NCBI GenBank assembly: GCA_964385755.1
Contig: CAYLPZ010000003.1
Coordinates: 65,052-129,051 of the forward strand
DNA: 64,000 bases
Reading direction: 5' to 3'
From: an uncultured Coprobacillus sp.
Lineage (GTDB): Bacteria; Bacillota_I; Bacilli_A; ML615J-28; CAG-698
A model generated the notes under the pieces. The model ran no database searches. It was not told the origin of the DNA and saw only the letters and a list, made by a program, of their open reading frames with translations. Positions within the stretch are counted from its first letter, which is position 1. Each line of letters opens with the position of its first letter. The position numbers and the translations under genes were made by a program. Below are positions 6,499 through 54,433 of the stretch, piece by piece.

Positions 6499-7371
6499 AT
6501 GAATATACTTAAAAAAATACTTTATCCTAAGCTAATCATTCGTATTATTTTAATTCCCATTGCAACATTTTCCTTAGTTTATTCTCTTATAAATATAGAT
6601 ACCCTTATCTTTTTTCAATATATAGCGTATTTCATTTCCTTTTATACTTTATTAATTTGGTGTCTAAAAATACCAAAGATTATAATATACTTTAAGAAAA
6701 TAATAAGTAATAATAAATTATATATCAAGTGGCATAATGATATTTCTTTTAAAGTAAAGACTTCATTAAATATTTCTTTTGTGTGGAATACTAGTTATGG
6801 CATATTTCAATTATTCTTAGGAATTAAGCTCAACTCATTGTGGTATTATTCTTTTGCCATATACTATATTTTACTTGCTTTTATGCGTTCTTTTTTATTT
6901 TCCCACACGAGAAAATTTAACCCAGGTGAAAATATTAAATCAGAGTGTAAAAAATATACTATATGTGGTTTTATACTATTGCTATTAAATTTGGCCTTAA
7001 CAATTATTGAATACTACATTATTTTCAAAGATATGTCATTTAAACATCATCAATACACGGTCATAGCTATGGCACTTTATACTTTTATTTCTTTCTCTGT
7101 GGCACTTATAAATGTATTTAAATACAAAAAATTTAATAGTCCAGTCGTAACTGCTGCGAAAATAATTAGTTTATGTGTTGCTTGTGTTTCAATGGTAACT
7201 CTCACTTCTTCAATGCTTTATGTTTTTAGTAGTTCTGTTAATTCACAAAATAAAATTATTTTAACTGTTGAAAGCACTGTTGTATCACTATTCATAATTA
7301 TTATGGCTATTTACATGATTACTAATGGAATAAAGAAATTAAGTCTAATAACAAAATGCGATAGAGAATAA
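6499..7371 (+). CDS. polytopic membrane protein, unknown function
   Basis: 290-aa ORF with about 7-8 hydrophobic helices. It sits on the strand opposite to its neighbours, and a hairpin plus T-run follows at 7355-7390. Confidence 0.45.
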   Translation: MNILKKILYPKLIIRIILIPIATFSLVYSLINIDTLIFFQYIAYFISFYTLLIWCLKIPKIIIYFKKIISNNKLYIKWHNDISFKVKTSLNISFVWNTSYGIFQLFLGIKLNSLWYYSFAIYYILLAFMRSFLFSHTRKFNPGENIKSECKKYTICGFILLLLNLALTIIEYYIIFKDMSFKHHQYTVIAMALYTFISFSVALINVFKYKKFNSPVVTAAKIISLCVACVSMVTLTSSMLYVFSSSVNSQNKIILTVESTVVSLFIIIMAIYMITNGIKKLSLITKCDRE

Positions 7372-7396
7372 TCTCTACCGCTTATTTTTTTATATA

Positions 7397-8314
7397 TTAT
7401 GAACCTAAATATGCTGCCTTTACTTTTTCATTATTTAATAGTTCTTCACCAGTTCCTGATAATACAACATTTCCAGTTTCAAGAACATAGGCACGATCAC
7501 AAATACTTAAAGCCATTTTAGCATTCTGTTCAACAAGTAAAATTGTTGTGCCATGAGCATTTAAATCTTTTATTATGTCAAAGATTTCTGTTACATAGAT
7601 TGGTGATAATCCCATTGAAGGTTCATCCATTAGTAATATTTTTGGTTTGCTCATCATTGCTCTTGCCATTGCTAGCATTTGTTGTTCACCACCAGAAAGT
7701 GTTCCAGCTTTTTGCTTTCTTCTTTCCTTTAGTCTTGGGAATCGTTCAAATACTTCCTCTAAATCTTCTTTGATCTTAGTTTGATTATGACGTCGATATG
7801 CTCCCATTTCTAGGTTTTCTTGAACTGTAAGTTCTGCAAACACTTGTCTTCCCTCAGGAACATGAGCTACACCATATAAAATACCATCATATGGTTTAAT
7901 TTTAAATAAATCAGCTTTAACATATTTATTATACTTTTTACGAAGTTTTTCCACTTTTGCTTTAGCAAAGTAGCTTTCTTTACCAAATACTTCTTTAGCA
8001 ATATCTTCATTTGAACTAATTTTGTCAAATGTTTTTTCGCTAGTTTGATATACAGCAAGTAATTTATCTGCCATCTTGGTTCCCGCAAATCTATTAAGGG
8101 TACGTTTATCTTTTAGCATTGATAAATCAAGTTGTGCACTACTTCCAGACTCAACCTTAATTAATCCAGAAAGAGAACGAAGCAAAGTTGTTTTACCAGC
8201 ACCATTTGCGCCAATCAAGACAACTATTTCACCTTGTTTAACATCAATATTTATGCCTTTTAAAGCTTTAATATTGCCATTATATGTTACTTTTAAATCG
8301 CGTACTTCTAACAT
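7397..8314 (-). CDS. livF: branched-chain amino acid ABC transporter ATP-binding protein LivF, with ~70-aa lysine-rich insertion
   Basis: Walker A GANGAGKTT. The LivF-like N-terminus reads MLEVRDLKVTYNGNIKALKGINIDV, with signature LSGGEQQMLAMARA and Walker B LLMDEPSMGL. An extra segment (approx nt 7940-8160) is absent from canonical ~235-aa LivF. Confidence 0.8.
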   Translation of the reverse strand: MLEVRDLKVTYNGNIKALKGINIDVKQGEIVVLIGANGAGKTTLLRSLSGLIKVESGSSAQLDLSMLKDKRTLNRFAGTKMADKLLAVYQTSEKTFDKISSNEDIAKEVFGKESYFAKAKVEKLRKKYNKYVKADLFKIKPYDGILYGVAHVPEGRQVFAELTVQENLEMGAYRRHNQTKIKEDLEEVFERFPRLKERRKQKAGTLSGGEQQMLAMARAMMSKPKILLMDEPSMGLSPIYVTEIFDIIKDLNAHGTTILLVEQNAKMALSICDRAYVLETGNVVLSGTGEELLNNEKVKAAYLGS

Positions 8315-9102: not shown

Positions 9103-10171
9103 CAGTTGTCACCTCCTCTTTTACTTTTTTCTTAAAGATTTTTCTAAAGAGGTTTTTTATCTTCTTAATAAGATTTTTACAGTTTTGTTTAAAGTTCAAA
9201 ATGAACTTAGTCATACTAAATTCATGAATTCCAAATAACCCTTTAGGCGCAAAGATCATTATTAGAATTAATGCTAAAGAATAAATAATTAAACGTAAAG
9301 CACCAAAATTAGTTAATTTAATTGTTAAATAACTAAGAACTGTTGCTGAGAGGATGCTTCCAGTGTATGAGCCTAAACCACCAAATACTACCATAACTAA
9401 GTAATCAATTGATTTACTTAAGCCAAAGTTTTCAGGGTAAATTGAACCAATTGTATGAGCAAACATTGCACCACCAATTCCCGCAAATACAGCAGATACG
9501 GTGAATGCTAATACTTTATATCTTGTTACTGAAATACCAGACGCTTCTGATGCAATTTCATCTTCTCTTATTGATAAAATAGCTTTACCATGGCGAGAAG
9601 TCATAAATGAATATACGATAGCAACACAAATTACAGTTGTTACTAATGCAATTAATATACCCGCATAACCACCTAAATCTTTATTTGATGCACTTAATAC
9701 TTTTGGAAGACCTGATAAACCTTGTGAACCTTTTGTGATAGGTAAGTTCTTGATTAAACACCTAATAGCCTCACCAAAGCCAAGTGTTACAATTGCTAAG
9801 TAGTCACCTCTTAGTCTTAAACATGGAATACCAACGATTAATCCAAAGATTGCGCAAACTGCTGCAGATAATAAAATACATAGTAGAAATTGAACATACA
9901 TATTTTCCATTGGAAAATATTTGCAAAATAGACCTGAGATATATGCACCTATTGCCATAAATCCTGCTTGACCTAAAACTATTTCACCCATTGATCCAGC
10001 TGAAATGTTTAGTGATACTGCAACTACAATATTTATACAAATTGTGATCACTGTTGTTGTAAATGAACGACTAATAGACTTTGTTATTAAAGCTACAACT
10101 GCAATTAGTAAAATTGATGAAATCAAATTTACTAACATCGGAAAGCGTTTATGATTAATTAATTTTTTCAT
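9092..10171 (-). CDS. livM: branched-chain amino acid ABC transporter permease LivM (with charged C-terminal tail)
   Basis: Polytopic permease. It lies between the livH-like and livG genes, and its C-terminal KKIKNLFRKIFKKKVKEE tail overlaps the livG start. Confidence 0.7.
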   Translation of the reverse strand: MKKLINHKRFPMLVNLISSILLIAVVALITKSISRSFTTTVITICINIVVAVSLNISAGSMGEIVLGQAGFMAIGAYISGLFCKYFPMENMYVQFLLCILLSAAVCAIFGLIVGIPCLRLRGDYLAIVTLGFGEAIRCLIKNLPITKGSQGLSGLPKVLSASNKDLGGYAGILIALVTTVICVAIVYSFMTSRHGKAILSIREDEIASEASGISVTRYKVLAFTVSAVFAGIGGAMFAHTIGSIYPENFGLSKSIDYLVMVVFGGLGSYTGSILSATVLSYLTIKLTNFGALRLIIYSLALILIMIFAPKGLFGIHEFSMTKFILNFKQNCKNLIKKIKNLFRKIFKKKVKEEVTTDGK

Positions 10172-11058
10172 TATACTTTCTCCCTTCTATTTTTACCTAG
10201 AATTCCAGATGGTTTAACAAGTAATATAAAGATCAAAATTGAGAATGTAATAACATCAACCCAAGCAGATCCAATATAAGGGATACATAAATGTTCTATA
10301 ACACCTATTATTAAGCCGCCAAGAACAGCTCCAGGGATTAATCCAATTCCACCAAGAACAGCAGCAACGAAGGCCTTAATACCTAAAGTTGAGCCAAGCA
10401 TATTATTAAATCCTTGGTAATAGATACAATACATTACAGAAGCTAATCCCGCAAGCATAGCTCCAATGATAAATGTTGTAGAAATTGTTTTATCAACATT
10501 AATTCCCATCAAAACTGCCGCATCAGGATTTTCACTTACAGCTTTCATTGCTTTTCCTGGTCTTGTCTTATTTACAAATAACGTTAACACTGTAGTACTT
10601 ATTATTAGTAATACTATCATAAGTATTAATTTCCATTGAATTGTTAAATCACCTAATGTAAATGATCCTAAATCAGGAATTATTTCAGGTGACTCTTTAT
10701 CACGACTACTAAATGCAAGTGCAAATAAATTCTCAAGTAAGAATGATACTGCAATTGCAGTAATTAGAGCTGTGATTCTTTTTGATTTTCTTAAAGGTTT
10801 ATAAGCTAATTTTTCAGTTAGAAAACCTAATAATCCCGTTAATACCATTGTTATTAAGACACTAAAGACGGGTGGAATACCTAGTCCTAATAGAATATTT
10901 GTAGCACCTAATGCTACGAAGCAGCCTACCATTATAAAATCGCCATGGGCAAAGTTTATTAGTTTTATAATTCCATAAACCATTGTATATCCAAGTGCGA
11001 CAAGTGCGTAGATACTACCAGACGATAAACCATTTATTAAGTATTCAAAAAATTCCAT
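10171..11058 (-). CDS. livH: branched-chain amino acid ABC transporter permease LivH
   Basis: The N-terminus MEFFEYLINGLSSGSIYALVALGYTMVYG is the classic LivH start. The protein is polytopic. Confidence 0.75.
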   Translation of the reverse strand: MEFFEYLINGLSSGSIYALVALGYTMVYGIIKLINFAHGDFIMVGCFVALGATNILLGLGIPPVFSVLITMVLTGLLGFLTEKLAYKPLRKSKRITALITAIAVSFLLENLFALAFSSRDKESPEIIPDLGSFTLGDLTIQWKLILMIVLLIISTTVLTLFVNKTRPGKAMKAVSENPDAAVLMGINVDKTISTTFIIGAMLAGLASVMYCIYYQGFNNMLGSTLGIKAFVAAVLGGIGLIPGAVLGGLIIGVIEHLCIPYIGSAWVDVITFSILIFILLVKPSGILGKNRREKV

Positions 11059-11126
11059 AAGCTTATTCTCCTAACACACTTATTTTTCTCCGTAAGGATA
11101 TTTTATATTTAAATATTATATAATAA

Positions 11127-12308
11127 TTATAGTTCTTTGTATAAAGATAATGATCCATCAGCGTGGAATTCAAGAACTGGAGCACTCTTTTGTGGGTTGT
11201 TCTTTTCATCAAATGTTAATGCACCAGTACATCCTTCAAATGAAATACCTTTTAATGCGGCAACAACATCAGCATTATCAGTTGAATTTGCTTTTTCGAT
11301 TGCGGCAACTGCAAGATATAATGCATCATATGCTAAAGCTGCAAACATTGAAGGAACTTCTTCATGACCATTCTTATATAATTCTGTTCCAGCTCTATTA
11401 AATTCTGCTTTATAATCAGCATAGAATGATTTAACTTGTTCTTTTTCTGAACCAGAAAAAATACCAGTTACATAGAAGCAGTTTTCAAAATATTCAGGGT
11501 GTGCATAATTAGCAGTAGCACCATCCCATCCATCACCGCCAAAGAACATACAATCAACACCAGCTTCACGGCAAGCAGCAACAGCAGTTCTAATTTGATC
11601 AGTATAGTCAGGCATTACAATTGCATCTGGAGCAGCATTTTTAATTTCTGTAACAAATGAGCTCATAGAGTTCTTTAATGCATCTAAATTATCATAATTT
11701 AATAATTTTGCAACTTCAACTTTTCCTTCAACTTCACTAACAAATGCATCACAAATACCAGAAGAGTATGCGTCAGCAGTGTTCTTTAAAACAACAACTT
11801 TTTTAACGCCTTTATCTAAAGCAAGCTTAGAAAGAATTGTACCTTGATAAGAATCAATAAAGCAAGTACGGAATACAGATCCTTTTAATTTACCATCATC
11901 ATAAGTTACAACATCACCTGTTGCAGTTGGAGTGATCATTGGAACACCATCTTCAGCAGCTGCAGAAGAAACTGCTATAGTAGTATTAGTGATAACTGGT
12001 CCAACGATAATATCAACATCTTCAGCTATTGATTGATATTGGTTAACAGCTGTAGTAGGATCAGCTGTATCATCTTTTATAACTAATTCTATTTGTTTTT
12101 TAGCGCCATCAACATTAACACCACCAGCTTCATTGATTTGTTTAGTAGCTAGTTTAACACCATTAACTACTTCTTCAGCATAGAATTGTGCTGCAACACT
12201 TAAGTTACCGATAACACCTATTTTAACAGTATCATTTTCTTTTTCACCACAAGCAATTAGGCCAAATCCTAAAGCCAACATCATAACTACGAATAGAAAT
12301 TTTTTCAT
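11127..12308 (-). CDS. livJ: branched-chain amino acid ABC transporter substrate-binding lipoprotein (LivJ/LivK family)
   Basis: Lipoprotein signal MKKFLFVVMMLALGFGLIACGE with a periplasmic binding-protein type I fold, first gene of the liv cluster. The RBS AAAGGAGAAAAG lies upstream. Confidence 0.7.
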   Translation of the reverse strand: MKKFLFVVMMLALGFGLIACGEKENDTVKIGVIGNLSVAAQFYAEEVVNGVKLATKQINEAGGVNVDGAKKQIELVIKDDTADPTTAVNQYQSIAEDVDIIVGPVITNTTIAVSSAAAEDGVPMITPTATGDVVTYDDGKLKGSVFRTCFIDSYQGTILSKLALDKGVKKVVVLKNTADAYSSGICDAFVSEVEGKVEVAKLLNYDNLDALKNSMSSFVTEIKNAAPDAIVMPDYTDQIRTAVAACREAGVDCMFFGGDGWDGATANYAHPEYFENCFYVTGIFSGSEKEQVKSFYADYKAEFNRAGTELYKNGHEEVPSMFAALAYDALYLAVAAIEKANSTDNADVVAALKGISFEGCTGALTFDEKNNPQKSAPVLEFHADGSLSLYKEL

Positions 12309-26280: not shown

Positions 26281-27165
26281 ATGAACTTAATCGGCGCAAA
26301 GGTTTACTTTGACGGCAGACATTGGATAGCTATTCGCCATACCGAACGAAGTTCCAAACGGCGAAGAAAGAGCATTAAGGCGCAGGACGACCCCACGGTT
26401 GAACAGTTTGAAAAGTCGTTTAACAAGACAACAAAGGGTAGAAATTCGAAGAAAAAAGAAAGCCTTTTGAAAGAGTTTTTACCCCACTTTGACAGCGAAA
26501 GCGAAGCTACGGAATTTGTAGAAACGCAGTTTGAACGGCTTAACCGCAACCGCATTGAAAGATTTAAAAGGTTAAAGCGAAAGGCGTATTTACAGCAATG
26601 GCACTACTTTTGCACTTTTACCTATGCGGACGGCAAGCAGACCGAAGAGAGTTTCAGAAAGCAGTTAATGAACTGTTTATACCATTTGGCTACACGAAAG
26701 GGTTGGAGATATATCGGAGCTTGGGAACGTGGTGAAGATAACGGAAGATTACACTTTCACGCTTTGGTCTATATACCGCCCGACGGTATGGTTGGAGAGT
26801 TTGAAGAACGTAACGATTTCAGCTTTAAAGCTCATAAACGGCAGGTTACTAATCAAAATACGTTTTTCAACGAGCGGTTTGGGCGTAACGATTTCGACAA
26901 GATTTCACATCAAATCGAAGTCGAGAACAGCGTTTACTATATGCTCAAATACATAACCAAGAATGACGAAAAGGTCGTTTATTCAAGGGGGTTAAAGAGC
27001 TATATCGTAGCGGACATTTTGGAAGAAGATATACTCTGCCCTTATGGTGATGACGAGAATGAATACAAATTTATACTTTCAGACGATTTCACCTGCATTA
27101 CGGACGGCGAGATTTTGGGAAAGGTCAGTCCCGAAGTCATAGAAAAAATGCCGAAAAGTAACTGA
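26281..27165 (+). CDS. rep: rolling-circle replication initiator (HUH endonuclease superfamily Rep)
   Basis: Motif I FCTFTYAD, motif II HFHALVY (HUH) and motif III VYYMLKYITKN (YxxKYxxK, the two-tyrosine type seen in phiX174 gpA-like and plasmid Reps). The basic N-terminal region is preceded by RBS AAAGGGGGTG. Confidence 0.6.
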   Translation: MNLIGAKVYFDGRHWIAIRHTERSSKRRRKSIKAQDDPTVEQFEKSFNKTTKGRNSKKKESLLKEFLPHFDSESEATEFVETQFERLNRNRIERFKRLKRKAYLQQWHYFCTFTYADGKQTEESFRKQLMNCLYHLATRKGWRYIGAWERGEDNGRLHFHALVYIPPDGMVGEFEERNDFSFKAHKRQVTNQNTFFNERFGRNDFDKISHQIEVENSVYYMLKYITKNDEKVVYSRGLKSYIVADILEEDILCPYGDDENEYKFILSDDFTCITDGEILGKVSPEVIEKMPKSN

Positions 27166-27364
27166 CCAAGAGTTTTTGTCTATCGACTTGCAGAGCGTAA
27201 ACGAAAACCCACGCTGTTGCAAGGGTAAAATGCACTACTTTCGTAGCCCTTGCATCAGCGCAGGAATAAGCCATAAAAAACGCTAAACAATGGCTTTCCG
27301 TTTGTTCGCCCCTTGTCGAAAGACAAAAGTTAAAAATCTATTTTAAAAGGAGTTTAAATTAAGA

Positions 27365-28846
27365 ATGAAAAAAGCAGTTATATATGCAAGATACTCTTGC
27401 GATAAGCAAACCGAACAATCAATCGAGGGTCAGTTGAGAGTTTGTCAGGAATATGCCAAAAGGAATGATATTCTAATTCTTAACACCTACATTGACCAAG
27501 CTATGTCAGGTACGAATGACAATCGTCCTGATTTTAAGAAAATGATTAAAGACAGCGCAAAGCGTGAATGGGATTTCGTACTCGTTTACAAACTTGATAG
27601 GTTTTCAAGAAATAAGTACGAAGCTACAATTCACAAGAAAACGTTAAGAGATAACGGTGTTAAGGTTATATCCGCTATGGAGAACATACCAGACACCCCC
27701 GAAGGAATTATCCTTGAAAGCCTACTTGAAGGAATGAACCAATACTATTCCGCAGAGCTTTCTCAAAAGGTTAAGCGTGGTATGAAAGAAACAAGATTAA
27801 AAGGTTATTACCAAGGCGGTGGCGTTCCGTATGGATATAAAATAGACGGACGAAAGGTTGTAATTGACGAAGAAAGAGCCGAAGTTGTCAGATATATGTA
27901 CGACGAATTTTCAAAGGGCGTAATCGTCAAAGATATTGTTAAGGCTTTGACCGATATGGGTAAGACCTACCGTGGTAAGCCGTTTGCGATGAACACAGTT
28001 TACGGAATACTGCGCAACGAAAAGTACATAGGAGTTTATAGAATTAACGACGAAGTTATAACCAATATGTACCCCAAGATAGTTGACGAACCTATTTTCA
28101 ACCGAGTAATAGCCATATTAGAACGTAATAAACGTGGTAGTCGCAGTCAAGAAACCAATTACCTATTAAAGCACAAATTAAAGTGCGGTTATTGCGGTAA
28201 CAATATCAACGGTGAATATGCTAAATCTCATACAGGAGCGAGCTTTTACTACTATAAATGCCGTGGTCGTAAATCGAAGTTAGCGGACTGTAAAAAAGGT
28301 ACTATTCAAAAGGATTGCCTTGAAAATCTTGTAATCGGTAACACCATAAAAGAGTTAAGCGACCCTATGAATATGCAGACGATTATTAACGGTATTCTTG
28401 AAATGCAAAGGCGAAACCTAAAAGAAAATTCCAAGTTAGCAGAGCTTAAAAGGGAACAGCGAGAGATTGAGATTGCCATTGACAACACTATGAAAGCGAT
28501 AGCACAAGGAGTTATTACAAAATCTACGGGGCAGTACCTTAAAACCTATGAAGAAAGGCAAGAAGAAATTATTAAGCAGATTGCCATTGAGCAGAGTAAG
28601 GAAACGGTTTTATTGACCGAAAAGGAAATTAGAAAGTTTTATGAAGATGCTTTAAAACTTGAACCTCAAATGCTTATAAATTACCTTGTAAAAGAGATAG
28701 TGTTATACGATAACCGAGCAGACATTATCTACACAAGTCCATTAAAATCTACGGATAGTCCTGACGATAGTCAGGGCTTTTCTTTTTACTCTAAAACGGT
28801 TAGAATTAAGAATAGGTACTTTATTATAACGCTGTATATCAAATGA
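27365..28846 (+). CDS. large serine recombinase (resolvase catalytic domain + recombinase domain + zinc ribbon)
   Basis: The N-terminus AVIYARYSCDKQTEQSIEGQ carries the catalytic Ser. VYKLDRFSRN, the recombinase domain GVPYGYKIDGRKVV and the zinc ribbon CGYCGNNING...YYYKCRGRK are present. RBS AAAGGAG. Confidence 0.8.
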   Translation: MKKAVIYARYSCDKQTEQSIEGQLRVCQEYAKRNDILILNTYIDQAMSGTNDNRPDFKKMIKDSAKREWDFVLVYKLDRFSRNKYEATIHKKTLRDNGVKVISAMENIPDTPEGIILESLLEGMNQYYSAELSQKVKRGMKETRLKGYYQGGGVPYGYKIDGRKVVIDEERAEVVRYMYDEFSKGVIVKDIVKALTDMGKTYRGKPFAMNTVYGILRNEKYIGVYRINDEVITNMYPKIVDEPIFNRVIAILERNKRGSRSQETNYLLKHKLKCGYCGNNINGEYAKSHTGASFYYYKCRGRKSKLADCKKGTIQKDCLENLVIGNTIKELSDPMNMQTIINGILEMQRRNLKENSKLAELKREQREIEIAIDNTMKAIAQGVITKSTGQYLKTYEERQEEIIKQIAIEQSKETVLLTEKEIRKFYEDALKLEPQMLINYLVKEIVLYDNRADIIYTSPLKSTDSPDDSQGFSFYSKTVRIKNRYFIITLYIK

Positions 28847-46993: not shown

Positions 46994-47848
46994 CTATTCC
47001 TCCTCTTCATAATAATATGAGTAATCTATTCCTTTCATAAATATATCTCTATCTTTAATATTATCAGTTAATGCTTTATTTAATAAATCGAATATAGGTT
47101 TAGAATTTGTTGGACTTAATTTCATCGCATTTAAGTAATCATTTTTTTCAATTTTAGACCAATCAATGCATTTTTGAATTCTTTCTTTCAATAATAAATC
47201 AAGCCAAATTCTAGTAGATCTTCCATTGCCTTCCATAAATGGATGAGCAATATTCATTTCAATATACTTATCTATTATTTTTGTAAATGTATCATCAGGC
47301 ATTTTATCGATATCAAGTAGCACTTGTGACAAATAATCACCATTAGCAAAAACAAAACCGGCTTTAGATATAGTTTTAGTTCTAATTTGACCTGCAAAAT
47401 CATAGATACCTTCAAATAAATAAGCATGTATTTGTTGTAACAATTTGGTTTTACCTACATATAATAAATCTAATATATTAGATTCAAATAAAGTTTGAGC
47501 CTTCCTTTTGCTCTGCTCATCTATTGGATCCATACTTCCAGCAACCCAATTATTAAAATCTAGATTGTTTTTGTTTTTCAAGATGATACCAAGTCTTTTA
47601 ACACCAGACTCATCAATCACATCATTCAGATATTTTTTGCCATCATTTGAATATAATTTTAGTTGTCTACAAAATGTATTCAACTCTGGATTTCTTCTTT
47701 TTATGGCATTCCAGTATATTCTTGGATTTTTTGAATCTGTTAAAGCAAAAACAATATCAGTTGCGGAATACCACCACTTATTATTTTCATTATCCCAAAT
47801 TGCTCTTACCTGTTTGTTTAAAAATGTTCTAATCGAATGTTTAATCAT
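46994..47848 (-). CDS. BRO-N domain + Fic (Fido) domain protein
   Basis: The N-terminal VRAIWDNENNKWWYSATDIVFAL is BRO-N / antirepressor-like. The C-terminal HPFMEGNGRSTR is the canonical Fic motif HxFx(D/E)GNGRxxR. Confidence 0.7.
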   Translation of the reverse strand: MIKHSIRTFLNKQVRAIWDNENNKWWYSATDIVFALTDSKNPRIYWNAIKRRNPELNTFCRQLKLYSNDGKKYLNDVIDESGVKRLGIILKNKNNLDFNNWVAGSMDPIDEQSKRKAQTLFESNILDLLYVGKTKLLQQIHAYLFEGIYDFAGQIRTKTISKAGFVFANGDYLSQVLLDIDKMPDDTFTKIIDKYIEMNIAHPFMEGNGRSTRIWLDLLLKERIQKCIDWSKIEKNDYLNAMKLSPTNSKPIFDLLNKALTDNIKDRDIFMKGIDYSYYYEEEE

Positions 47849-48003
47849 ACATAAATTATATCATAATTAATTTTAGTTGTCTACAATTTGTATACAACTA
47901 TGATATTTCTTTAACTCATACTCTAATTATTCCGAAATTATAGGCTAAATAAATAGAATATATTCCTTGTTATTACTTTTGTAGTTTTGTTTGACATGTT
48001 TTC

Positions 48004-48227
48004 TTACACATATGTATACCTTTTTTTATAATCATCAAATGACATCTTATTAATTTCTGATATCAATGAGTGATTATTTATTTGTTCTTCAACATAATGC
48101 CATCCACATACTGTGCAAAAATCATCTTCCATCTTTATTCCTTCTTTAATCTCTTCATCAGAAAGAGTTTCAAAATAATAACCACTGCAAACAGGACATA
48201 ATGTTTTTTTTACTTTATTTCACCCAT
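48004..48227 (-). pseudogene. small zinc-ribbon protein gene (LCPVCSGYY...CTVCGWHY) lacking an in-frame start in this copy
   Basis: The 69-aa frame has two CxxC pairs. An intact homologous start MGRNKVKKILCPICSGYYFE exists in repeat copy B at 50026. Here a 1-nt difference (ggtgaaat vs ggtagaaat) puts the ATG out of frame. Confidence 0.3.
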
Positions 48228-48352
48228 ATTTTTCCTCTTTTTTGTTCGAGCTAGGTTACCTAGCTTCGTAATATTAAATTTACAAAAAACTAATGTTCTG
48301 AGTAAATTTCTTATCTTGTTGATAAAGATAGACAACTAATTAATTTTTAATT
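48122..48352. repeat. mosaic intergenic repeat, copy A (segment Y)
   Basis: About 230 bp, roughly 93 % identical to 49913-50131. Confidence 0.6.
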
Positions 48353-48437
48353 AAAATATTTTTAAACCTTATATTATATTTCTGCAAAATTCTTACTTAA
48401 AATAATATATAATATAGTAAATGTGTTTTTATTTTTT

Positions 48438-48534
48438 GTAACTTGTGACAATTTTGTAAAGTGTTATACTTGCTTTTTAAGGTTTTTTTGGTATAATATT
48501 TTTGTAAAGCGTAACTTGTGACAATTTTGTAAAG
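48438..48534 (+). promoter_or_regulatory. two 24-bp direct repeats GTAACTTGTGACAATTTTGTAAAG bracketing a promoter (-35 TTGCTT 48470-48475, 16 nt, extended -10 TGgTATAAT 48489-48497) for the ATPase gene
   Basis: Exact repeat copies at 48438-48461 and 48511-48534; the second overlaps the RBS AAGGTG. Confidence 0.45.
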
Positions 48535-48546
48535 TAAGGTGCAACT

Positions 48547-49800
48547 ATGATAATTAAAAGAGATTTATATTTAAACAAATTGATTGAACGAAAGCATAAT
48601 GGTTTAATCAAAGTGATTACTGGAATTCGTAGATGTGGAAAATCTTTTCTTTTATTTAAACTTTTTAAAAATCATTTACTATCTGAAGGTGTAAAAGAAG
48701 ACCACATCATAGAACTTAACTTTGATGATTTTGATAATGAAGAATACCAAAATCCGAAAGTTACTTCCCCTTATTTAAAAGGTAAAGTTGTTGATTCAGA
48801 TATGTATTATTTTTTATTAGATGAAATTCAACTTCTTGGTAAATTCGAAGCTGTTTTAAATGGTTTATTAAGACTTGATAATGTTGATATTTATGTTACC
48901 GGAAGTAATGCTAAATTTTTATCTAAAGATGTAATAACAGAATTTAGAGGACGTGGTGATCAAGTTCATATTTATCCACTTTCTTTTAAAGAATTCTTTG
49001 AAGCTAGAAATATTGATAGAATGACTGCTCTTGAAGAATACTTAACATATGGTGGTATTCCTTTAATATTATCAATGCAAACACATGAAGCTAAATCCAA
49101 CTTTTTACATAACCTCTTTATTGAAACTTACTTAAAAGATATTATCAATAGAAACAATTTAACCAACAATAATGAATTAAAAGAATTAGTAAATATTGTT
49201 TCTTCTTCTATTGGTTCATTAACAAACCCAACTAAACTATCTAATACCTTTAAAAGTGTTAAAAACATAAACTTGTCCGTTCCAACAATCAGCAAATACT
49301 TAGAATATTTAACTGATTCATTTTTAATACATAAGGCAATTCGTTATAATATTAAAGGCAGAAAATATATTGATACTCCAAGTAAATATTATTTTTCAGA
49401 TCTTGGCATTAGAAACGCTTCTATTAACTTCCGTCAAAATGAAAAAACTCATTTAATGGAAAACTTAATTTATAACGAATTATTAATTAGGGGATATAAT
49501 GTAGATGTTGGTGAAGTTCCTTTGGTTGTTAGAGATGAAAACAAAACACAAATTAGAAAGACATTAGAAGTTGATTTTGTATGCAACCTAATTGATAAAC
49601 GATTATATATTCAATCAGCATATTCATTATATGATGAAGAAAAATACCTTCAAGAAACACGATCTCTTTTAAACATTAAAGATAATTTTAGAAAGATAAT
49701 TATCACATATGATTATGGTCGTAAACATTATACTAATGATGGTATTATTATCATGAGTTTATTTGATTTCTTACTTGATCCTGATTCATTAAATTATTAG
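48547..49800 (+). CDS. COG1373 AAA+ ATPase (AAA_14 + DUF4143 architecture)
   Basis: Walker A ITGIRRCGKSFLL and Walker B-like YYFLLDEIQ. Length 417 aa. Confidence 0.65.
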   Translation: MIIKRDLYLNKLIERKHNGLIKVITGIRRCGKSFLLFKLFKNHLLSEGVKEDHIIELNFDDFDNEEYQNPKVTSPYLKGKVVDSDMYYFLLDEIQLLGKFEAVLNGLLRLDNVDIYVTGSNAKFLSKDVITEFRGRGDQVHIYPLSFKEFFEARNIDRMTALEEYLTYGGIPLILSMQTHEAKSNFLHNLFIETYLKDIINRNNLTNNNELKELVNIVSSSIGSLTNPTKLSNTFKSVKNINLSVPTISKYLEYLTDSFLIHKAIRYNIKGRKYIDTPSKYYFSDLGIRNASINFRQNEKTHLMENLIYNELLIRGYNVDVGEVPLVVRDENKTQIRKTLEVDFVCNLIDKRLYIQSAYSLYDEEKYLQETRSLLNIKDNFRKIIITYDYGRKHYTNDGIIIMSLFDFLLDPDSLNY

Positions 49801-49843
49801 TCTATTTGCAATAATAGGCTTTTTCTTTACTTTAATTATTAAA

Positions 49844-50131
49844 TTTCAGCTTCTAATTCTTCTTTTGATATTAATCCTTCTTCAATTAACCTATTAAGTT
49901 CGGCTTTTTTCATTTTCCATCTATATTCCTTCTTTAATCTCTTCATCAGAAAGACTTTCAAAATAATAGCCACTGCAAATAGGACATAATATTTTTTTTA
50001 CTTTATTTCTACCCATATTTTTCTCCTTTTTGTTTGAGCTTGGTTACCTAGCTTCGTAAGATTAAATTTACAAAAAACTAATGTTTTGAGTTAATTTCTT
50101 ATCTTGTTGCTAAAGATAGACAACTAATTAA
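49844..50131. repeat. mosaic intergenic repeat, copy B (segments X+Y)
   Basis: 49844-49927 matches 51996-52080 (segment X) and 49913-50131 matches 48122-48352 (segment Y). On the minus strand it encodes MGRNKVKKILCPICSGYYFESLSDEEIKEGI* and, in another frame, ...EYRWKMKKAELNRLIEEGLISKEELEAEI*. Confidence 0.6.
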
Positions 50132-50238
50132 TTTTTAAAAGGTTTAAAATTTTCTTTGAGAGGTAATAAAAATTACCTTACAGAGTAAAAAATTAACCTT
50201 TCTATTTGATTTCTTCTTTTTAATTTGATATAATATCA

Positions 50239-50991
50239 TTGGTGGTAGTGATGAAATATTTAAATGAATTAACAAAATATAAAGTTTTTAACAGAAAAGA
50301 TTTTGCAACTATGATAAATGATGATAATTTAGCAAAAATGCTTTTACAAAACTATTTAGAAAAAGGCTATATAAAACGTATTAAACATAATTTATATGGT
50401 GTTGTAAGTCTAGAAACTAATGAATGTATAGCTGACAAATTTTTAATTGCTTCTAATATTACAGACACTTCTTTTATATCACATCATTCTGCATTTGAAT
50501 TTTATGGTTATTATAATCAAGTTTATTATGATGTAAATGTATCTTCTATCTCTAAATTTAATACCTTCGAATTTGAAGAAAACAAATTTTCTTTAATTAA
50601 AGTATCTTCTACAAACTTAGTTGAAGAAATACGTGGTGTTAAGGTTACTTCAATAGAGAGAACTATAGTAGATTCAATTAAAGATTCTGGTAAATATTGT
50701 GAGTTAGAAGAAACATTAAACTGCATCAATATGATTCCATACATTTCAACAAAAGAAATTTTAAAGTATTTAGATCAAATAAATTCAAAAATGCTTTATA
50801 AAAAAGTTGGTATTATTTTATCTCTATTTAAAGATAAACTAAACATTCCTGATTCTTTCTTTGATATATGCCATGAAGTATCCGATTCAATTAAGGGACA
50901 TTTTGATAAAAATAAAAGTGCTCATGTATATAATTCCGAATGGAAAATATTTATTTACAAAGACTTAAGAAATTACATTAACAAGGAATGA
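50239..50991 (+). CDS. abiEi: AbiEi-family antitoxin (type IV TA, wHTH N-domain)
   Basis: GYIKRIKHNLYGVV (the AbiEi_4 G.l.R..rGvY motif) and VKVTSIERTIVDSIKD are present. Confidence 0.6.
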   Translation: MVVVMKYLNELTKYKVFNRKDFATMINDDNLAKMLLQNYLEKGYIKRIKHNLYGVVSLETNECIADKFLIASNITDTSFISHHSAFEFYGYYNQVYYDVNVSSISKFNTFEFEENKFSLIKVSSTNLVEEIRGVKVTSIERTIVDSIKDSGKYCELEETLNCINMIPYISTKEILKYLDQINSKMLYKKVGIILSLFKDKLNIPDSFFDICHEVSDSIKGHFDKNKSAHVYNSEWKIFIYKDLRNYINKE

Positions 50992-50995
50992 TCAT

Positions 50996-51954
50996 ATGTT
51001 CAATTACAAAAAACACGAAATAGTAGCATTAGCTAAAGACAATGGTTTTAGAAGTGAAACTTTAGAAAAAGTTCTTAGATTAATAGACGTATTAGATTTT
51101 ATAAGTAAAACAGATGAACTTTCTCCTTATTTAGTACTTAAGGGGGGACATCAATTAACTTTACGGTATTTAATCTTCCTAGACTAAGTGTCGATATTGA
51201 TTTAGATTTTTCCTTTAGTGGTACTAGAGAAGAAATGTTAAATAAAAGAAAAGAAATCACCGCTATCATCAGAAGATATATGGAAATTAACAACTACAGT
51301 ATTAATGATGAAACCAAATCAAAACATGCATTAGATTCGTTTGTATTTAATTACAATAATAACTTTGGAAACAAAGATAACTTGAAAATTGAAATTAACT
51401 ATATGAATAGAACACACGTATATGAAACAATCACAAGAAATGTTTCTATATCTTTTTTAACTTCTTTTAAAACATTAACATCGAATAAATATGAACTATA
51501 TGGTTCTAAAATTAAGGCACTTATTGAAAGATGTACTATTAGAGATGTATATGATGTTTACCATATGCTTAAAGAAAATTTATTTAATGAATCCGAATTT
51601 AATTTAGTAAAGAAATGTGTAATATTCTATATGGTAATTGGTAAAACTACTGATAGACCATTTAACGAAGTGTTAATCGACTTTGAAACGAAAATTAATG
51701 CATATATGGTAGACAAAGTACCACAATACCTTTCTTCAACTCTTAAAAAAGATGATAAATTTTCGATGATTGATTCCGCAAATATGGTTAAAGATTTTGT
51801 TTCAACTTTAATGAAATTAAATGAATTTGAAACTAAATTTATTAACGAGTTTGAAAATAGTAATTATTGTCCTGAACTTCTATTTGATGATAACGAAATT
51901 ATTAATAGAATCAAAAATCATCCAATGGCATTATGGAAAATATCAAACAAATAA
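50996..51954 (+). pseudogene. abiEii: AbiEii/AbiGii-family nucleotidyltransferase toxin (DUF1814), interrupted by a frameshift at a G6 tract (51142-51147)
   Basis: Frame 1 gives LVLKGGHQLTLRYLIFLD*. The neighbouring frame continues NLPRLSVDIDLDFSFSGTREE... A G7 tract would restore LVLKGGTSINF..NLPRLSVDIDLDF, the AbiEii consensus. Confidence 0.55.
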
Positions 51955-51995
51955 CAAGTCACATTAACTTCCTAGAAATGGGAAGTTTTTTACAT

Positions 51996-52080
51996 TTTCG
52001 CTTCTAATTCTTCTTTTTATATTAATCCTTCTTCAATTAACCTCTTAAGTTCGGCTTTTTTCATTTTCCATCTATATTCT
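51996..52080. repeat. mosaic repeat, copy C (segment X), carrying small minus-strand ORF MSYLLSKSIELTKQVDEEAYEVFLEYRWKMKKAELKRLIEEGLI
   Basis: About 90 % identical to 49844-49927. Confidence 0.55.
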
Positions 52081-52254
52081 AAAAAAACTTCATAGGCTTC
52101 TTCATCAACCTGTTTAGTTAATTCAATTGATTTACTTAATAAATAACTCATTTGATTTAACTCTTGCTTCCTAAGGCAACTTGCAATGGATCAACCAATT
52201 TCTAATTTGTTTAATCACTACATACTCAATATGTTAATCATAATATTTGCTATC

Positions 52255-52422
52255 AATTATTCGTGATATAGGTTTTCCTTCTACAACTAAATCACCATAA
52301 GTTGAAAAATCTCTCTTTATGAAAGCATCCCATAATTCTAAGTTGTTATACATAGCACTAATGACAATAGATGCAATCGTATTAAAATCATATTTTCTAT
52401 ATATCTAATAATATAAATTCAA
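52255..52422 (-). pseudogene. orphan C-terminal gene fragment (..TIASIVISAMYNNLELWDAFIKRDFSTYGDLVVEGKPISRIIDSKYYD*) without start
   Basis: An open frame of 55 codons bounded upstream by a stop, with no start codon. Confidence 0.2.
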
Positions 52423-52478
52423 ATAAAGTATTTTCTTATATTCATTTAGTCCTAATTTCCAATATTTATCCAAGAATA

Positions 52479-52991
52479 TCACCTAGTCCTTTCATCCGTT
52501 ACAATATGCTCAATTCCAACATGATCTCGGCATAAATAATCTTTCATGAAAGTAGGAAATGCTTTGTAATTGTCCAATTCATTAATTGGTATCCAATACA
52601 TATTTTCTTTTACACCAAATGTTGTACTATTGCTATGCAGTTCCTGCGTACCTCTTGGTTTCATCAAATAATAAAAACATACTTCATGACAATCCAGTCC
52701 GGCCAATGTTCCTTTATTCTCATCGAAAAAATTTTCATGAATTACAGCCAAACGATCAATATCATACGCAACCCCTGTTTCTTCAAAAACTTCCCTTTTT
52801 ACTGCATCCTCAGCAGTTTCTCCCATATGGACACCACCGCCGATAGAGTAATAATAGTCTTCTAGTTCATTCCCTGCAAACAAAACACAGCCATCCTCAA
52901 CAATAATAGCAGCTGCTCTATATCGAAACCATTTATTTTCTTTTGTAAAACCACAATCATATTCCTTCATCATTTTCATCCCTTTTTCCAA
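52479..52991 (-). CDS. NUDIX hydrolase
   Basis: Nudix box GGGVHMGETAEDAVKREVFEETGV. Confidence 0.7.
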   Translation of the reverse strand: MEKGMKMMKEYDCGFTKENKWFRYRAAAIIVEDGCVLFAGNELEDYYYSIGGGVHMGETAEDAVKREVFEETGVAYDIDRLAVIHENFFDENKGTLAGLDCHEVCFYYLMKPRGTQELHSNSTTFGVKENMYWIPINELDNYKAFPTFMKDYLCRDHVGIEHIVTDERTR

Positions 52992-53101
52992 ATAATATAG
53001 GGGTAGAACTTTTCCACCCCTCTTTAATTACTAAGTTCAATATACATTTCCCCCTGCTAAAAACACAGGTATATATTTATCAAAAAAGCCCTGAACCCCG
53101 C

Positions 53102-54421
53102 TTAAACTGAGTCTTTACGTGACAGTAAACAAACGGTTTCCACATGATATGTACAAGCAAACATATCAACTAAAGATACTTTTTCCACTTTATAATTCTT
53201 AAGCATACTTATATCCCTTGCTAAAGTTTTTGCTTCACATGAAACATAAACTATCTTTGGTACTTTCATTTCTTCAACAGCATGCAAAAATTCTTTTGTT
53301 GAACCACATCTTGGAGGATCCATAATTAGTACATCAAACTTTTCATCGGTATTTAATATATAGTTTGTAGCATCATCACAGACAAAACTCATATTTGTTA
53401 TTTTGTTTTCTTTCGCATTTACTCTTGCGTTAAGCACTGATTGTTTGTTGTTTTCCACACCAATTACTCTTTTTGCGTTTTTGCTTAATATCATTCCTAT
53501 AGTACCAACTCCACAATAAGCATCTAATACTTTTTCACATCCTGTAAGATTAGCATATTCTTTTACGATACTATAAAGTATTTCTGTTTGTCTTGGATTT
53601 ATTTGGTAGAATGTTTTTGATGATATTTTAAAGTTTATCCCTGATAGTGTATCGTTTATATACCCAGGGCCATACAATACTCTTTCTTCATCACCTAATA
53701 TTATACTAGTTTTTCTAGTATTTACATTTTGTACTATTGATGTGATATAAGGGCATCTTGCCTTTAGTCTTTTCACAAATTCATTTCTTCCAGGAAAAAT
53801 ATCTGAGTTTGTTACAATTGTTACTAATATTTCTTTTGAATAATAACCTTCTCTTATCATTACAAAACGAATCAATCCTGTGCGTTTATCTTCTTGATAA
53901 ACTTGCAACCTTAGTTCTTTTATTATGTCACAAACTACTTTTACAATTTCATTTTGTCTATCTGATTGAACTAAACATTTCTTTAAAGGAATTATTCTAT
54001 GGGAATCTTCTTCGTAAAAACCATATACTATTTTACCTTCTTTGATGCCAAAAGCTACTTGCATTTTGTTTCGGTAGCCTTCTTTAACTAAAGAAGATAC
54101 ATATTTATCTAATTTAAAAAGGATTTTATATTCTCTAAAGCAGCTTTCAACATAATCTTTTTTAAAGTTTTCCTGAGCTTTATCATTCATGTGTAAAAGG
54201 TGGCACGAACCACATTTTAAATAATGTTCACATTTTGGTTCAACTCGTTCTTTACTTTTCTTTATAAAAGAAGATATATAATATTTACCTTTTTTATCTT
54301 TATCAGCTAATGCAACCTCGCCAACAAGTAAATTACTAGCATAGCCAATATCTTTTCCAACTTTAAATACACCTTGACCAAAATCATTATATGTAAAACA
54401 TTTAACTTCTATTTTTGCCAT
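53102..54421 (-). CDS. rlmCD: 23S rRNA (uracil-C5)-methyltransferase RlmCD/RumA family (TRAM + [4Fe-4S] + SAM MTase)
   Basis: Cys cluster CEHYLKCGSCHL. SAM motif DAYCGVGTIG. Catalytic region LIMDPPRCG. The preferred start MAKIEV is at 54421 with RBS AAAGGTGA; the track start is 54430. Confidence 0.75.
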   Translation of the reverse strand: MAKIEVKCFTYNDFGQGVFKVGKDIGYASNLLVGEVALADKDKKGKYYISSFIKKSKERVEPKCEHYLKCGSCHLLHMNDKAQENFKKDYVESCFREYKILFKLDKYVSSLVKEGYRNKMQVAFGIKEGKIVYGFYEEDSHRIIPLKKCLVQSDRQNEIVKVVCDIIKELRLQVYQEDKRTGLIRFVMIREGYYSKEILVTIVTNSDIFPGRNEFVKRLKARCPYITSIVQNVNTRKTSIILGDEERVLYGPGYINDTLSGINFKISSKTFYQINPRQTEILYSIVKEYANLTGCEKVLDAYCGVGTIGMILSKNAKRVIGVENNKQSVLNARVNAKENKITNMSFVCDDATNYILNTDEKFDVLIMDPPRCGSTKEFLHAVEEMKVPKIVYVSCEAKTLARDISMLKNYKVEKVSLVDMFACTYHVETVCLLSRKDSV

Positions 54422-54433
54422 AATAATCACCTT

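Follow-up and report, generated by a model that had tools for sequence, protein, structure and literature searches.

Organisation of the repeats

The DNA considered here is a stretch of 64,000 nucleotides (nt) from an uncultured Coprobacillus sp. (GenBank assembly GCA_964385755.1, contig CAYLPZ010000003.1, positions 65,052 to 129,051), referred to below as the window. Beside the 23S rRNA methyltransferase gene rlmD it contains an island in which two repeats, X and Y, bracket two blocks of cargo genes. The first block carries an AAA_14/DUF4143 ATPase gene (48547-49800) and the second the abiEi (50239-50991) and abiEii (50996-51954) genes, all on the plus strand. Copy A of the repeats consists of Y, copy C of X, and copy B of both. 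X and Y are probably the backbone flanks of a cargo slot in integrative mobilizable elements (IMEs), and would represent a recombination scar and decayed relics rather than functional small genes.

In a self-comparison of 47000-53500, with E-values computed against the window itself, the Y repeat spans 48122-48363 in copy A (Y_A) and 49910-50156 in copy B (Y_B), with 91.1% identity over 248 aligned columns (E 4e-79). The core of this match is 48122-48350 against 49910-50138, and with small gaps it reaches 48363 and 50156. The X repeat is 93 nt long and 93.5% identical between 49836-49928 in copy B (X_B) and 51987-52079 in copy C (X_C), with an E-value of 5e-29. As these E-values were computed against the same window, which has a G+C content of 28.8%, the repeats are not compositional noise. 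A similarity search found no third copy of X or Y anywhere in the window. In copy B the two repeats overlap by 19 nt (49910-49928), which mark the joint between them.

A preliminary description of this DNA had reported mosaic repeats with copy B as an X+Y fusion, each placed divergently upstream of a cargo gene. The self-comparison bears out the repeat structure, with edges that differ by about 10-25 nt, and copy B is indeed a fusion, in which a 5′ part of the A-type has recombined with a 3′ part of the C-type. The divergent upstream position holds for Y, at the ATPase gene and abiEi, but not for X, the copies of which lie convergently downstream of the cargo. The minus-strand reading frames also stand, with that of copy A running to the stop at 48004 and that of copy B having a proper start at 50016. 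The peptide ...EYRWKMKKAEL.RLIEEGLI is present in copies B and C.

The source appears to be a draft assembly, and repeats of 90-230 nt at 91-94% identity can confuse short-read assemblers. The tandem would be explained by a chimeric contig into which two strain variants of a single locus had been merged. Two further sequences reproduce the arrangement. A unitig (L014, Logan SRR6824193) is 100% identical over 48137-49923 and ends exactly at the 31-mer common to Y_A and Y_B, as expected with both copies present. A contig from a different sample and assembler (L016, ENA ERZ13405070) spans the whole structure collinearly with 52523-46691 at 98.5% identity, with the same three copies and the same joint. 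Because both reproduce the sequence, an assembly artefact appears very unlikely and is hardly a credible source of the structure.

X, the tail of a MobL relaxase gene

X is the last ~28 codons of a decayed MobL-family relaxase gene (mobL) and not a small gene family. Copy C holds a mobL 3′-terminal relic of the last ~60 codons (51987-52172, minus strand), which includes X_C. The open reading frame (ORF) called there encodes 44 amino acids (aa) at 52151-52017, ending ...EYRWKMKKAELKRLIEEGLI, and is closed by a TAA nonsense codon (52017-52019) nine codons ahead of the usual stop of the family. The MobL homology begins 7 codons upstream of the called ATG. X_B (49836-49928, minus strand) was recognized by tblastn with MobL-tail proteins as the last ~22-28 codons and stop of the mobL tail of the ATPase block. 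Together with the ATPase gene it forms one continuous block that is found in six related islands (L002-L007, 93.8% identity over 49928-48357).

A profile of the X family, run against 1.8 billion representative proteins, placed the motif at the extreme C-terminus of ~404-aa proteins, along with many truncated forms. The proteins P0017 (residues 354-404, E 2.8e-13), P0026 and P0037 are among the matches, with E-values ranging to 4e-4, and all three are MobL relaxases, scoring 90-99 bits against PF18555 (cutoff 28.5). P0017 itself is a 404-aa MobL protein with a PF18555 score of 97 bits, and its residues 345-404 match the window at 52172-51993 by tblastn with 53% identity (E 3e-13). Full-length MobL proteins recovered only the tail pieces 52172-51993 and 49928-49863 from the window in a tblastn search. 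The N-terminal relaxase/nuclease domain with its histidine motif (LHENTDNRHIHI in P0017) was absent from the window in the same type of search. The X peptide is homologous to the extreme C-terminus of the MobL family, which includes RelLS20 of pLS20 (Ramachandran et al. 2017, PMC5313138; PF18555). It differs from that family in that only the tail survives, with the nuclease domain gone, which marks it as a relic.

The same peptide had been described as SHOCT-like, a resemblance that was not upheld. In a Pfam scan at E<=1 the 53-aa consensus protein of the X family matched no SHOCT model (PF09851 / PF20612), and its lone match was a weak one to TetR_C_17 (E 0.035).

The point at which mobL is cut at its 5′ side varies between islands. 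Expressed as residues of P0017, it lies at ~345 in the window, 313 in L002, 321 in L011, 291 with an internal deletion in L010 and about 370 in L008, and the tail of L021 is still shorter. The mobL breakpoints cluster within ~100 nt of the mobL 3′ end. Profile scans for the X family in IMG/VR and JGI metagenomes returned no matches, and a scan of GTDB representative genomes returned 3 loci only.

Y, a backbone segment with the head of a Cys_rich_CPCC gene

Y consists of an intergenic backbone segment and the first 31 codons of a small Cys_rich_CPCC (PF14206) gene, here termed the CPCC gene. Copy A contains a full-length CPCC pseudogene (48004-48227, minus strand), of which 48122-48227, the first 31 codons, is the coding part of Y_A. 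From the ATG at 48227 the frame breaks after codon 2, where one A is missing between 48222 and 48221 (GGT-GAAAT compared with GGTAGAAAT in copy B, L001 and L016). The CPxC...CxxC frame, which thus has no usable start, continues as far as the stop at 48004. Copy B contains a truncated CPCC ORF (49921-50016, minus strand) of 31 codons, which starts at the ATG at 50016, includes the first CPxC knuckle only and is closed by the TAG to which the joint gave rise. L016 has a called ORF of the same 31 aa at 2512-2607.

After correction of the frame, the 74-aa product of copy A scores 26.9 bits against PF14206 over residues 11-72, above the gathering cutoff of 24.5. This gives a family name to the zinc-ribbon-like minus-strand ORF that had been seen earlier. 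Intact 74-aa proteins, about 99% identical, are encoded in L001 (P0001) and L016 (P0040), and both carry a precomputed PF14206 label that is marked weak. Two cysteine pairs in one intact ORF occur in L001 and L016 but not in the window, where copy A is frameshifted and copy B stops after the first pair. The likeness to Cys_rich_CPCC thus lies in the CPxC...CxxCgW pattern, the length of ~74 aa and the score above threshold, whereas the window differs in having its full-length copy frameshifted and its second copy cut to 31 codons. A sequence search of the PDB with the CPCC protein gave chance-level matches only and no solved relative. A literature search on the PF14206 accession produced essentially nothing on the family, with one unrelated mention. 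Comparison of the CPCC protein and the X-family protein with NCBIfam and PADLOC yielded nothing meaningful.

The noncoding backbone of Y_A (48228-48363, minus strand) contains the boxes TAGACA-17-TAAAAT directed towards the ATPase gene, as well as an imperfect palindrome that precedes the CPCC gene. That of Y_B (50017-50156, minus strand) lies between the cargo and the next module and is collinear with the AbiE block of L021. As the preliminary description stated, Y does hold a divergent intergenic region with a putative promoter next to the ATPase gene and abiEi. A sigma-70 scan found 37 sites compared with 35.4 expected in shuffled sequence, which is no enrichment, and the promoter statements made here therefore draw solely on conservation of the TAGACA-17-TAAAAT box.

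The 10-mer TAGTTGTCTA occurs four times, compared with 0.19 expected, at 47660 and 47874 on the plus strand and at 48329 and 50117 on the minus strand. On the opposite strand it reads as the TAGACA -35-like box, which in three of the four occurrences stands 17 nt from TATAAT or TAAAAT. Each Y copy has one such 10-mer facing the cargo, and the nearest TAAAAT of Y_B is 22 nt distant owing to a 5-nt insertion. A further box ends 7 nt before the ATG of the Fic gene, which suggests that the Fic mRNA may be leaderless. One copy of the 10-mer lies inside the Fic coding sequence, within a 35-nt repeat (47654-47688 / 47868-47902). An exact-pattern scan for the conserved Y box in the JGI metagenomes and IMG/VR gave 0 matches. 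A riboswitch or small RNA in the Y leader was considered and rejected, as an Rfam scan of 47000-53200 at E<=1 gave zero matches and the palindrome (GCTAGGTAACCTAGC) is broken without compensatory changes in three of six sequences (copy B of the window, L001 and L021). Service as the divergent promoter region of the cargo genes is the sole activity likely to be left to Y. Bolder, and less likely than the cargo-exchange slot proposed below, is the idea that the truncated Y_B is still active, for instance as a promoter whose antisense transcripts would enter the ATPase gene at its 3′ end, or by giving rise to a CPxC peptide of 31 aa.

The preliminary description took the repeats for a regulator or antitoxin-like gene that had been duplicated together with its promoter. 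Functional small proteins of this kind (a zinc-ribbon regulator, a SHOCT-like or an antitoxin-like peptide) controlling the cargo would suit the position of the Y copies. They would also suit the intact CPCC gene of L001 and L016, and the retention of the 31-aa ORF in both strains. The X copies, on the other hand, are a relaxase tail convergent with the cargo, and there are no SHOCT, PADLOC or NCBIfam matches. Every copy in the window is broken and the breaks are strain-specific, being different in L016. Furthermore, the cargo blocks of L002 and L021 are without any CPCC gene, and the substitutions are mostly nonsynonymous. A regulatory role is accordingly very improbable, and the duplicated material would be backbone of a cargo slot in a mobile element and not a regulator with its promoter.

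The joint in copy B

The joint lies in a 19-nt patch (49910-49928, minus strand) of the form GAATA[T]AGATGGAA[A]ATGA, in which the CPCC gene and the mobL tail are identical at 17/19 positions. Three-way alignments of A, B, C and L001 give ...AAAGAAG GAATA A AGATGGAA G ATGA TTTT... for the A-type sequence and ...TTTTTTA GAATA T AGATGGAA A ATGA AAAA... for the C-type. Copy B reads ...AAAGAAG GAATA T AGATGGAA A ATGA AAAA.... The base before GAATA in copy B is of the A-type (G) and the base after it of the C-type (T), which places the crossover within GAATA (49924-49928). The joint fuses codon 31 of the CPCC gene of the AbiE block to the mobL tail of the ATPase block, out of frame, and the C-type T creates the TAG at which the CPCC frame ends. 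The joint sequence is GAAGGAATATAGATGGAAAATG, the parental junctions being GAAGGAATAAAGATGGAAGATG in the intact CPCC gene and TTTTTAGAATATAGATGGAAAATG in the mobL tail. It is identical in L016.

We infer that the joint arose by microhomology-mediated illegitimate recombination and not through a site-specific system. It resembles microhomology-mediated and homology-facilitated illegitimate recombination in its exact 5-nt match within a 17/19 patch, its location in unrelated genes, the out-of-frame outcome and the long homologous flanks adjacent to it. The event is here read from the finished sequence, to which a deletion and an insertion could lead alike.

A programmed cassette system, integron- or shufflon-like, in which a recombinase shuffles defence cargo at X and Y, would leave direct repeats bracketing each cargo, as seen here. 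Serine recombinases occur in the related islands, and an unrelated one lies at 27365-28846 in the window. The joint, though, is out of frame and falls at a short microhomology within a coding region. Identity between the copies is 91-94%, and they show no conserved core apart from the genes. Two strains have the same arrangement, and the island has no recombinase. Such a system is therefore scarcely tenable.

In the related islands L021-L030 (8739-9155 in L021) the mobL tail is cut at ...TGGAAAATGAAGG, just 5-8 nt from the position of the joint in the window. The cut tail is preceded there by an MmeI_C remnant and an IS3-type insertion sequence.

Related islands

In related islands the mobL tail is followed within 36-70 nt by convergent cargo of one of two types, an ATPase or AbiEii-AbiEi. 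The AAA_14/DUF4143 ATPase follows it in L002-L007, with the identity to 49928-48357 given above. AbiEii and AbiEi follow it in L008 and L009 (86-87%) and in L021-L030 (93.9% over 50018-52071), and the part of the AbiE block matched by relatives is about 50018-52106. L010 matches a partial AbiEii at 85%, and L011 has a short AbiEii C-terminal match only.

The noncoding segment of Y lies on the far side of the cargo. L002 keeps its distal 60 nt (90%), after which a different gene follows. In L021 a serine recombinase gene has about 130 nt of the Y backbone (90.6-90.8% to Y_A) as its upstream region, and the homology to the window stops at the CPCC start codon. The order in L001 is ATPase start, Y, CPCC gene and Fic gene; this sequence is 98% identical to 48694-46870 of the window and diverges beyond 46870. 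The architecture of the parent elements is seen in more distant ones that are intact. L015 has a MobL gene, convergent SLFN_AlbA_2/HATPase_c_4 cargo with a helix-turn-helix (HTH) gene, a 61-aa ORF and a large serine recombinase gene. In L018-L020 MobL is followed by a 112-aa ORF and a serine recombinase, with no cargo between. A recombinase gene is present in the related islands L002, L010, L015, L018 and L021.

The islands of the window, L002, L008 and L021 adjoin an rlmD-like gene, and this repeated synteny suggests integration at rlmD. The RlmD proteins of the window and L002/L008 are only 42-44% identical, whereas the ATPase is 97.6% and AbiEi 86-96% identical between hosts, showing that the cargo blocks move horizontally. 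L002 also has a C-terminal serine-recombinase remnant overlapping the end of rlmD (6603-6815) and a second, fragmented recombinase copy (10167-11645) that is 92% identical to the intact recombinase of L010 (267-2195). This is direct evidence of tandem or decayed elements at rlmD in a relative. In L008, an AbiE-type island, an internally deleted AAA_14 ATPase remnant (7218-7576; N- and C-terminal pieces at 52-55%) lies just upstream of the mobL tail and is another stacked, eroded cargo. In L005 (6748-9479) a cas9 gene comes within ~4 kb after the ATPase-type island and reinforces the impression of a defence island in this neighbourhood.

Origin of the tandem

The AbiE block and the ATPase block stand in tandem in the window genome and in L016, while related single blocks have one cargo each, in the order mobL tail, convergent cargo, Y backbone and next gene. 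The route tentatively favoured, with somewhat less than half of the confidence given to the reading as relics and scar, is a deletion inside an array of two sister elements. Two such elements would have accreted in tandem. A deletion through the GAATA microhomology would then have taken out the remainder of the CPCC gene together with the recombinase module and the front part of the next element, so that two defence cargos were left behind, immobilised. Thereafter the relics would have decayed neutrally, the window acquiring frameshifts in the CPCC gene and in abiEii and a nonsense codon in the mobL tail, and L016 a different frameshift in that tail. This route is favoured on account of the recombinase genes found just past the Y backbone in relatives and of the tandem decayed copies in L002. 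It is also reported that the rumA gene is a common target of serine-integrase integrative and conjugative elements (ICEs) as well as IMEs, with frequent tandem accretion of decayed elements (PMC5357655, PMC5704250).

Alternatively, DNA of a sister element (mobL tail, AbiE, Y and CPCC gene) could have entered a resident locus with mobL tail, ATPase, Y and CPCC gene. Homology in the mobL tail, or upstream of it, would have anchored one end, and the other would have been joined illegitimately at GAATA, that is, by homology-facilitated illegitimate recombination. A microhomology joint beside a homologous anchor is reportedly a hallmark of this process in transformable bacteria. A single event of this kind gives the exact order and joint observed, and the two blocks occur as units in other islands, in L021 for the AbiE block with its two flanks and in L002 for the ATPase block. 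Among the relatives, though, no AbiE-type element is followed by a CPCC gene, the Y backbone of L021 precedes a recombinase gene, and X_B and X_C are each other's closest relatives. An insertion is thus considered unlikely.

Still less probable is a duplication of the unit X-cargo-Y in place, by unequal crossing-over at the same microhomology, with one cargo later replaced through its flanks. With its joint between CPCC codon 31 and the mobL tail, a tandem duplication predicts exactly the order c5'-X-M-Y|X-M-Y-a3', and both cargo types share X/Y flanks in other genomes. The X copies of the window lineage also cluster together and share a derived MKKAEL, where the relatives have MKEAEL. This explanation needs two events, and identity between copies is only 91% for Y and 94% for X, compared with an overall strain difference of 1.5%. 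The flank just past each X stop, moreover, matches its own cargo type, X_B continuing into a flank of the ATPase type and X_C into one of the AbiE type, which has a terminator hairpin.

Several points weigh against the derivation of X and Y from element backbones by deletion in an array. No undeleted intermediate, with AbiE block, full CPCC gene, recombinase and ATPase block, was found among the relatives, and the deletion step is deduced for a window island without a recombinase remnant. The X copies of the window lineage cluster with one another (88-98%) and not by cargo type, so that duplication or gene conversion within the lineage fits as well as, or better than, two independent acquisitions. 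The phylogeny of the copies is itself ambiguous between deletion, insertion and duplication, as X clusters by lineage and Y_B evolves fast. Relatives were found by means of the mobL tail and the cargo proteins, and the constant presence of the tail is in part an ascertainment bias. Whereas in streptococci such elements insert inside rumA, the window has an intact rlmD, which a NUDIX gene separates from the relics. Finally, L014 could come from the same sample as the window.

Age and decay of the relics

Comparison of the window with L016 separates the cargo from its flanks. Divergence is 0.3% for AbiEi, 0.6% for the ATPase, 0.7% for AbiEii and 0.9% for Fic, and amounts to 4.4% in the noncoding part of Y_A, 6.5% in X_C and 7.1% in the noncoding part of Y_B. 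The copies in the window are all broken, by a frameshift in the CPCC gene (A), an out-of-frame fusion (B) and a nonsense codon (C). In L016 the CPCC gene and abiEii are intact, and its mobL tail has TCT where the window has TAA and a 1-nt deletion of its own at window position 52061. This sequence, 98.5% identical, shares the joint with the window while its lesions elsewhere differ, from which it follows that the joint is old and that the relics are in decay. X_B and X_C differ at five coding positions, with three nonsynonymous changes and one nonsense change. The divergence figures, these changes and the uncompensated palindrome indicate that the relics are under little or no constraint, beside cargo that is constrained.

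Genes of the island

The boundary of the island is formed by rlmD/rumA (53102-54430, minus strand), an intact core gene for the 23S rRNA U1939 methyltransferase that scores 358 bits against TIGR00479 (rumA; cutoff 183.6) over model positions 3-432 of 432. The NUDIX hydrolase gene between rlmD and the element relics (52479-52991) matches the PADLOC candidate PDC-S07 weakly (28.8 bits). It is followed by the remnant of a 221-aa element gene (52173-52444, minus strand), which includes a 39-aa ORF (52234-52353). Residues 56-139 of the 221-aa protein of L010 match 52398-52174 by tblastn with 65% identity (E 4e-31), and the DNA is 72-80% identical to L010.

The cargo is predicted to be of the defence type, comprising AbiEi/AbiEii, a PDC-S01 ATPase and a PDC-S04 BRO-N/Fic protein. 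AbiE is said to be a type IV toxin-antitoxin abortive-infection system, and the block in the window is a typical abiEi-abiEii pair. The gene for the antitoxin/regulator AbiEi appears intact (PADLOC AbiEi 250 bits), and its product is 86-96% identical to the proteins of L008, L009 and L021. The abiEii gene, for the AbiE nucleotidyltransferase toxin, is split; one piece matches positions 2-55 of the PADLOC AbiEii model PDLC02305 with 46 bits, and the other positions 80-305 with 213 bits. The break is a 1-nt deletion in a G6 run at about 51141-51147, which destroys the region of the LKGGTSINF motif. The missing base is seen by comparison with the intact gene of L008, and the abiEii of L016 encodes an intact protein of 322 aa. 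This frameshift may reflect true inactivation of the gene or phase variation, or may be a sequencing error in the homopolymer. The cargo of the window differs from a standard AbiE system in this frameshift, and the X/Y repeats lie outside the system.

The ATPase gene is intact and encodes a candidate single-gene defence protein (PADLOC PDC-S01, 397 bits), with Pfam scores of 109 bits for AAA_14 and 68 bits for DUF4143; the 97.6% protein identity noted above is to L002. Upstream of it lies a perfect 25-nt direct repeat, GTAACTTGTGACAATTTTGTAAAGT, with the core palindrome TTGTCACAA (48438-48462 / 48511-48535). L001 has one copy, the window being 73 bp longer, and L002 has three similar copies. 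The repeat may be an operator for the winged-helix domain of the ATPase itself.

The BRO-N/Fic gene (46994-47848, minus strand) lies downstream of the CPCC gene, and the CPCC-Fic pair is common to L001 and the window. It is the last gene of the island before a core gene for a DUF2807 lipoprotein. Its product is a full-length match to PADLOC candidate PDC-S04 (403 bits) and scores 255 bits against NF046029 (cutoff 230), with Pfam scores of 49.7 bits for Fic and 28.1 bits for Bro-N. The protein has an N-terminal BRO-N domain, a Fic domain of the NmFic type (HPFMEGNGRSTR) and a C-terminus ending ...DYSYYYEEEE.

Comparison of the whole island with phage and plasmid records by blastn gave distant matches to the Fic and ATPase genes only, and none to X or Y. 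No serine-recombinase remnant was found in 46.8-53.1 kb, the lone match in the window being a 23%-identical gene at 27371-28468. This belongs to a region (26281-28846) that comprises a rolling-circle Rep-like gene (PF23343, 48 bits) and, after it, an intact gene for a 493-aa large serine recombinase with Resolvase, Recombinase and Zn_ribbon_recom domains (27365-28846). The recombinase is unrelated to those of the islands, and the region looks like a separate small integrative element.

Relationship to known systems and significance

Decayed islands of IMEs and cis-mobilizable elements (CIMEs), accreted in tandem at rumA and at other sites, are known from Firmicutes, including streptococci (Guedon et al. 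2017, PMC5704250; Coluzzi et al. 2017, PMC5357655). Like the related islands discussed here, they combine a large serine recombinase with a relaxase gene beside rumA/rlmD. They share with the present system tandem and decayed copies, a modular backbone, variable cargo and deletions that leave immobile remnants. The present system differs in that its relaxase is of the MobL type and is cut to the last ~60 codons, rlmD is undisrupted and the island has no recombinase. Its cargo consists of predicted phage-defence genes and not of resistance genes, and the hosts are metagenome-assembled genomes (MAGs) of uncultured low-GC gut Bacilli/Firmicutes. Of the relaxase and oriT of an IME, the island retains only the ~60-codon mobL stump, no oriT having been searched for. 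As both the recombinase and the relaxase domain are absent, the island of the window is a remnant of IMEs and not itself a member.

In the hotspots of P2/P4 prophages, variable defence cargo is flanked by conserved genes. The islands described here are similar in that conserved flanks, the mobL 3′ end and the backbone before the recombinase module, bracket alternative defence cargos. Empty (L018) and occupied (L015, L002, L021) states both occur. They differ in that the element is a MobL and serine-recombinase IME, the sampling is small and the defence role is predicted.

It is a tentative proposal, less likely than not to be right, that these two flanks define a previously undescribed cargo-exchange slot. 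The slot would belong to MobL/large-serine-recombinase elements beside rlmD in low-GC gut Firmicutes. Defence genes (AbiE, PDC-S01 ATPase, BRO-N/Fic PDC-S04 and SLFN_AlbA_2 ATPases) would be swapped in it and could be stacked, the window showing a stacked and immobilised state.

The structure is an ordinary scar of genome evolution in a degraded integrative-element and defence island. It corrects the view of a small regulator or antitoxin family, whose supposed members are gene relics, namely a relaxase tail and the head of a CPCC gene with intergenic backbone. The 31-, 42- and 44-aa ORFs should not be annotated as genes, apart from the CPCC pseudogene. As a by-product, the outline emerges of a family of MobL/serine-recombinase elements in uncultured gut Firmicutes, with alternative phage-defence cargos after mobL. 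The locus is also a natural case, and a clean one, of two defence modules being stacked by a joint at a microhomology and left stranded in the chromosome. It may be of use in mapping defence-island hotspots and in studying how mobile islands become fixed.

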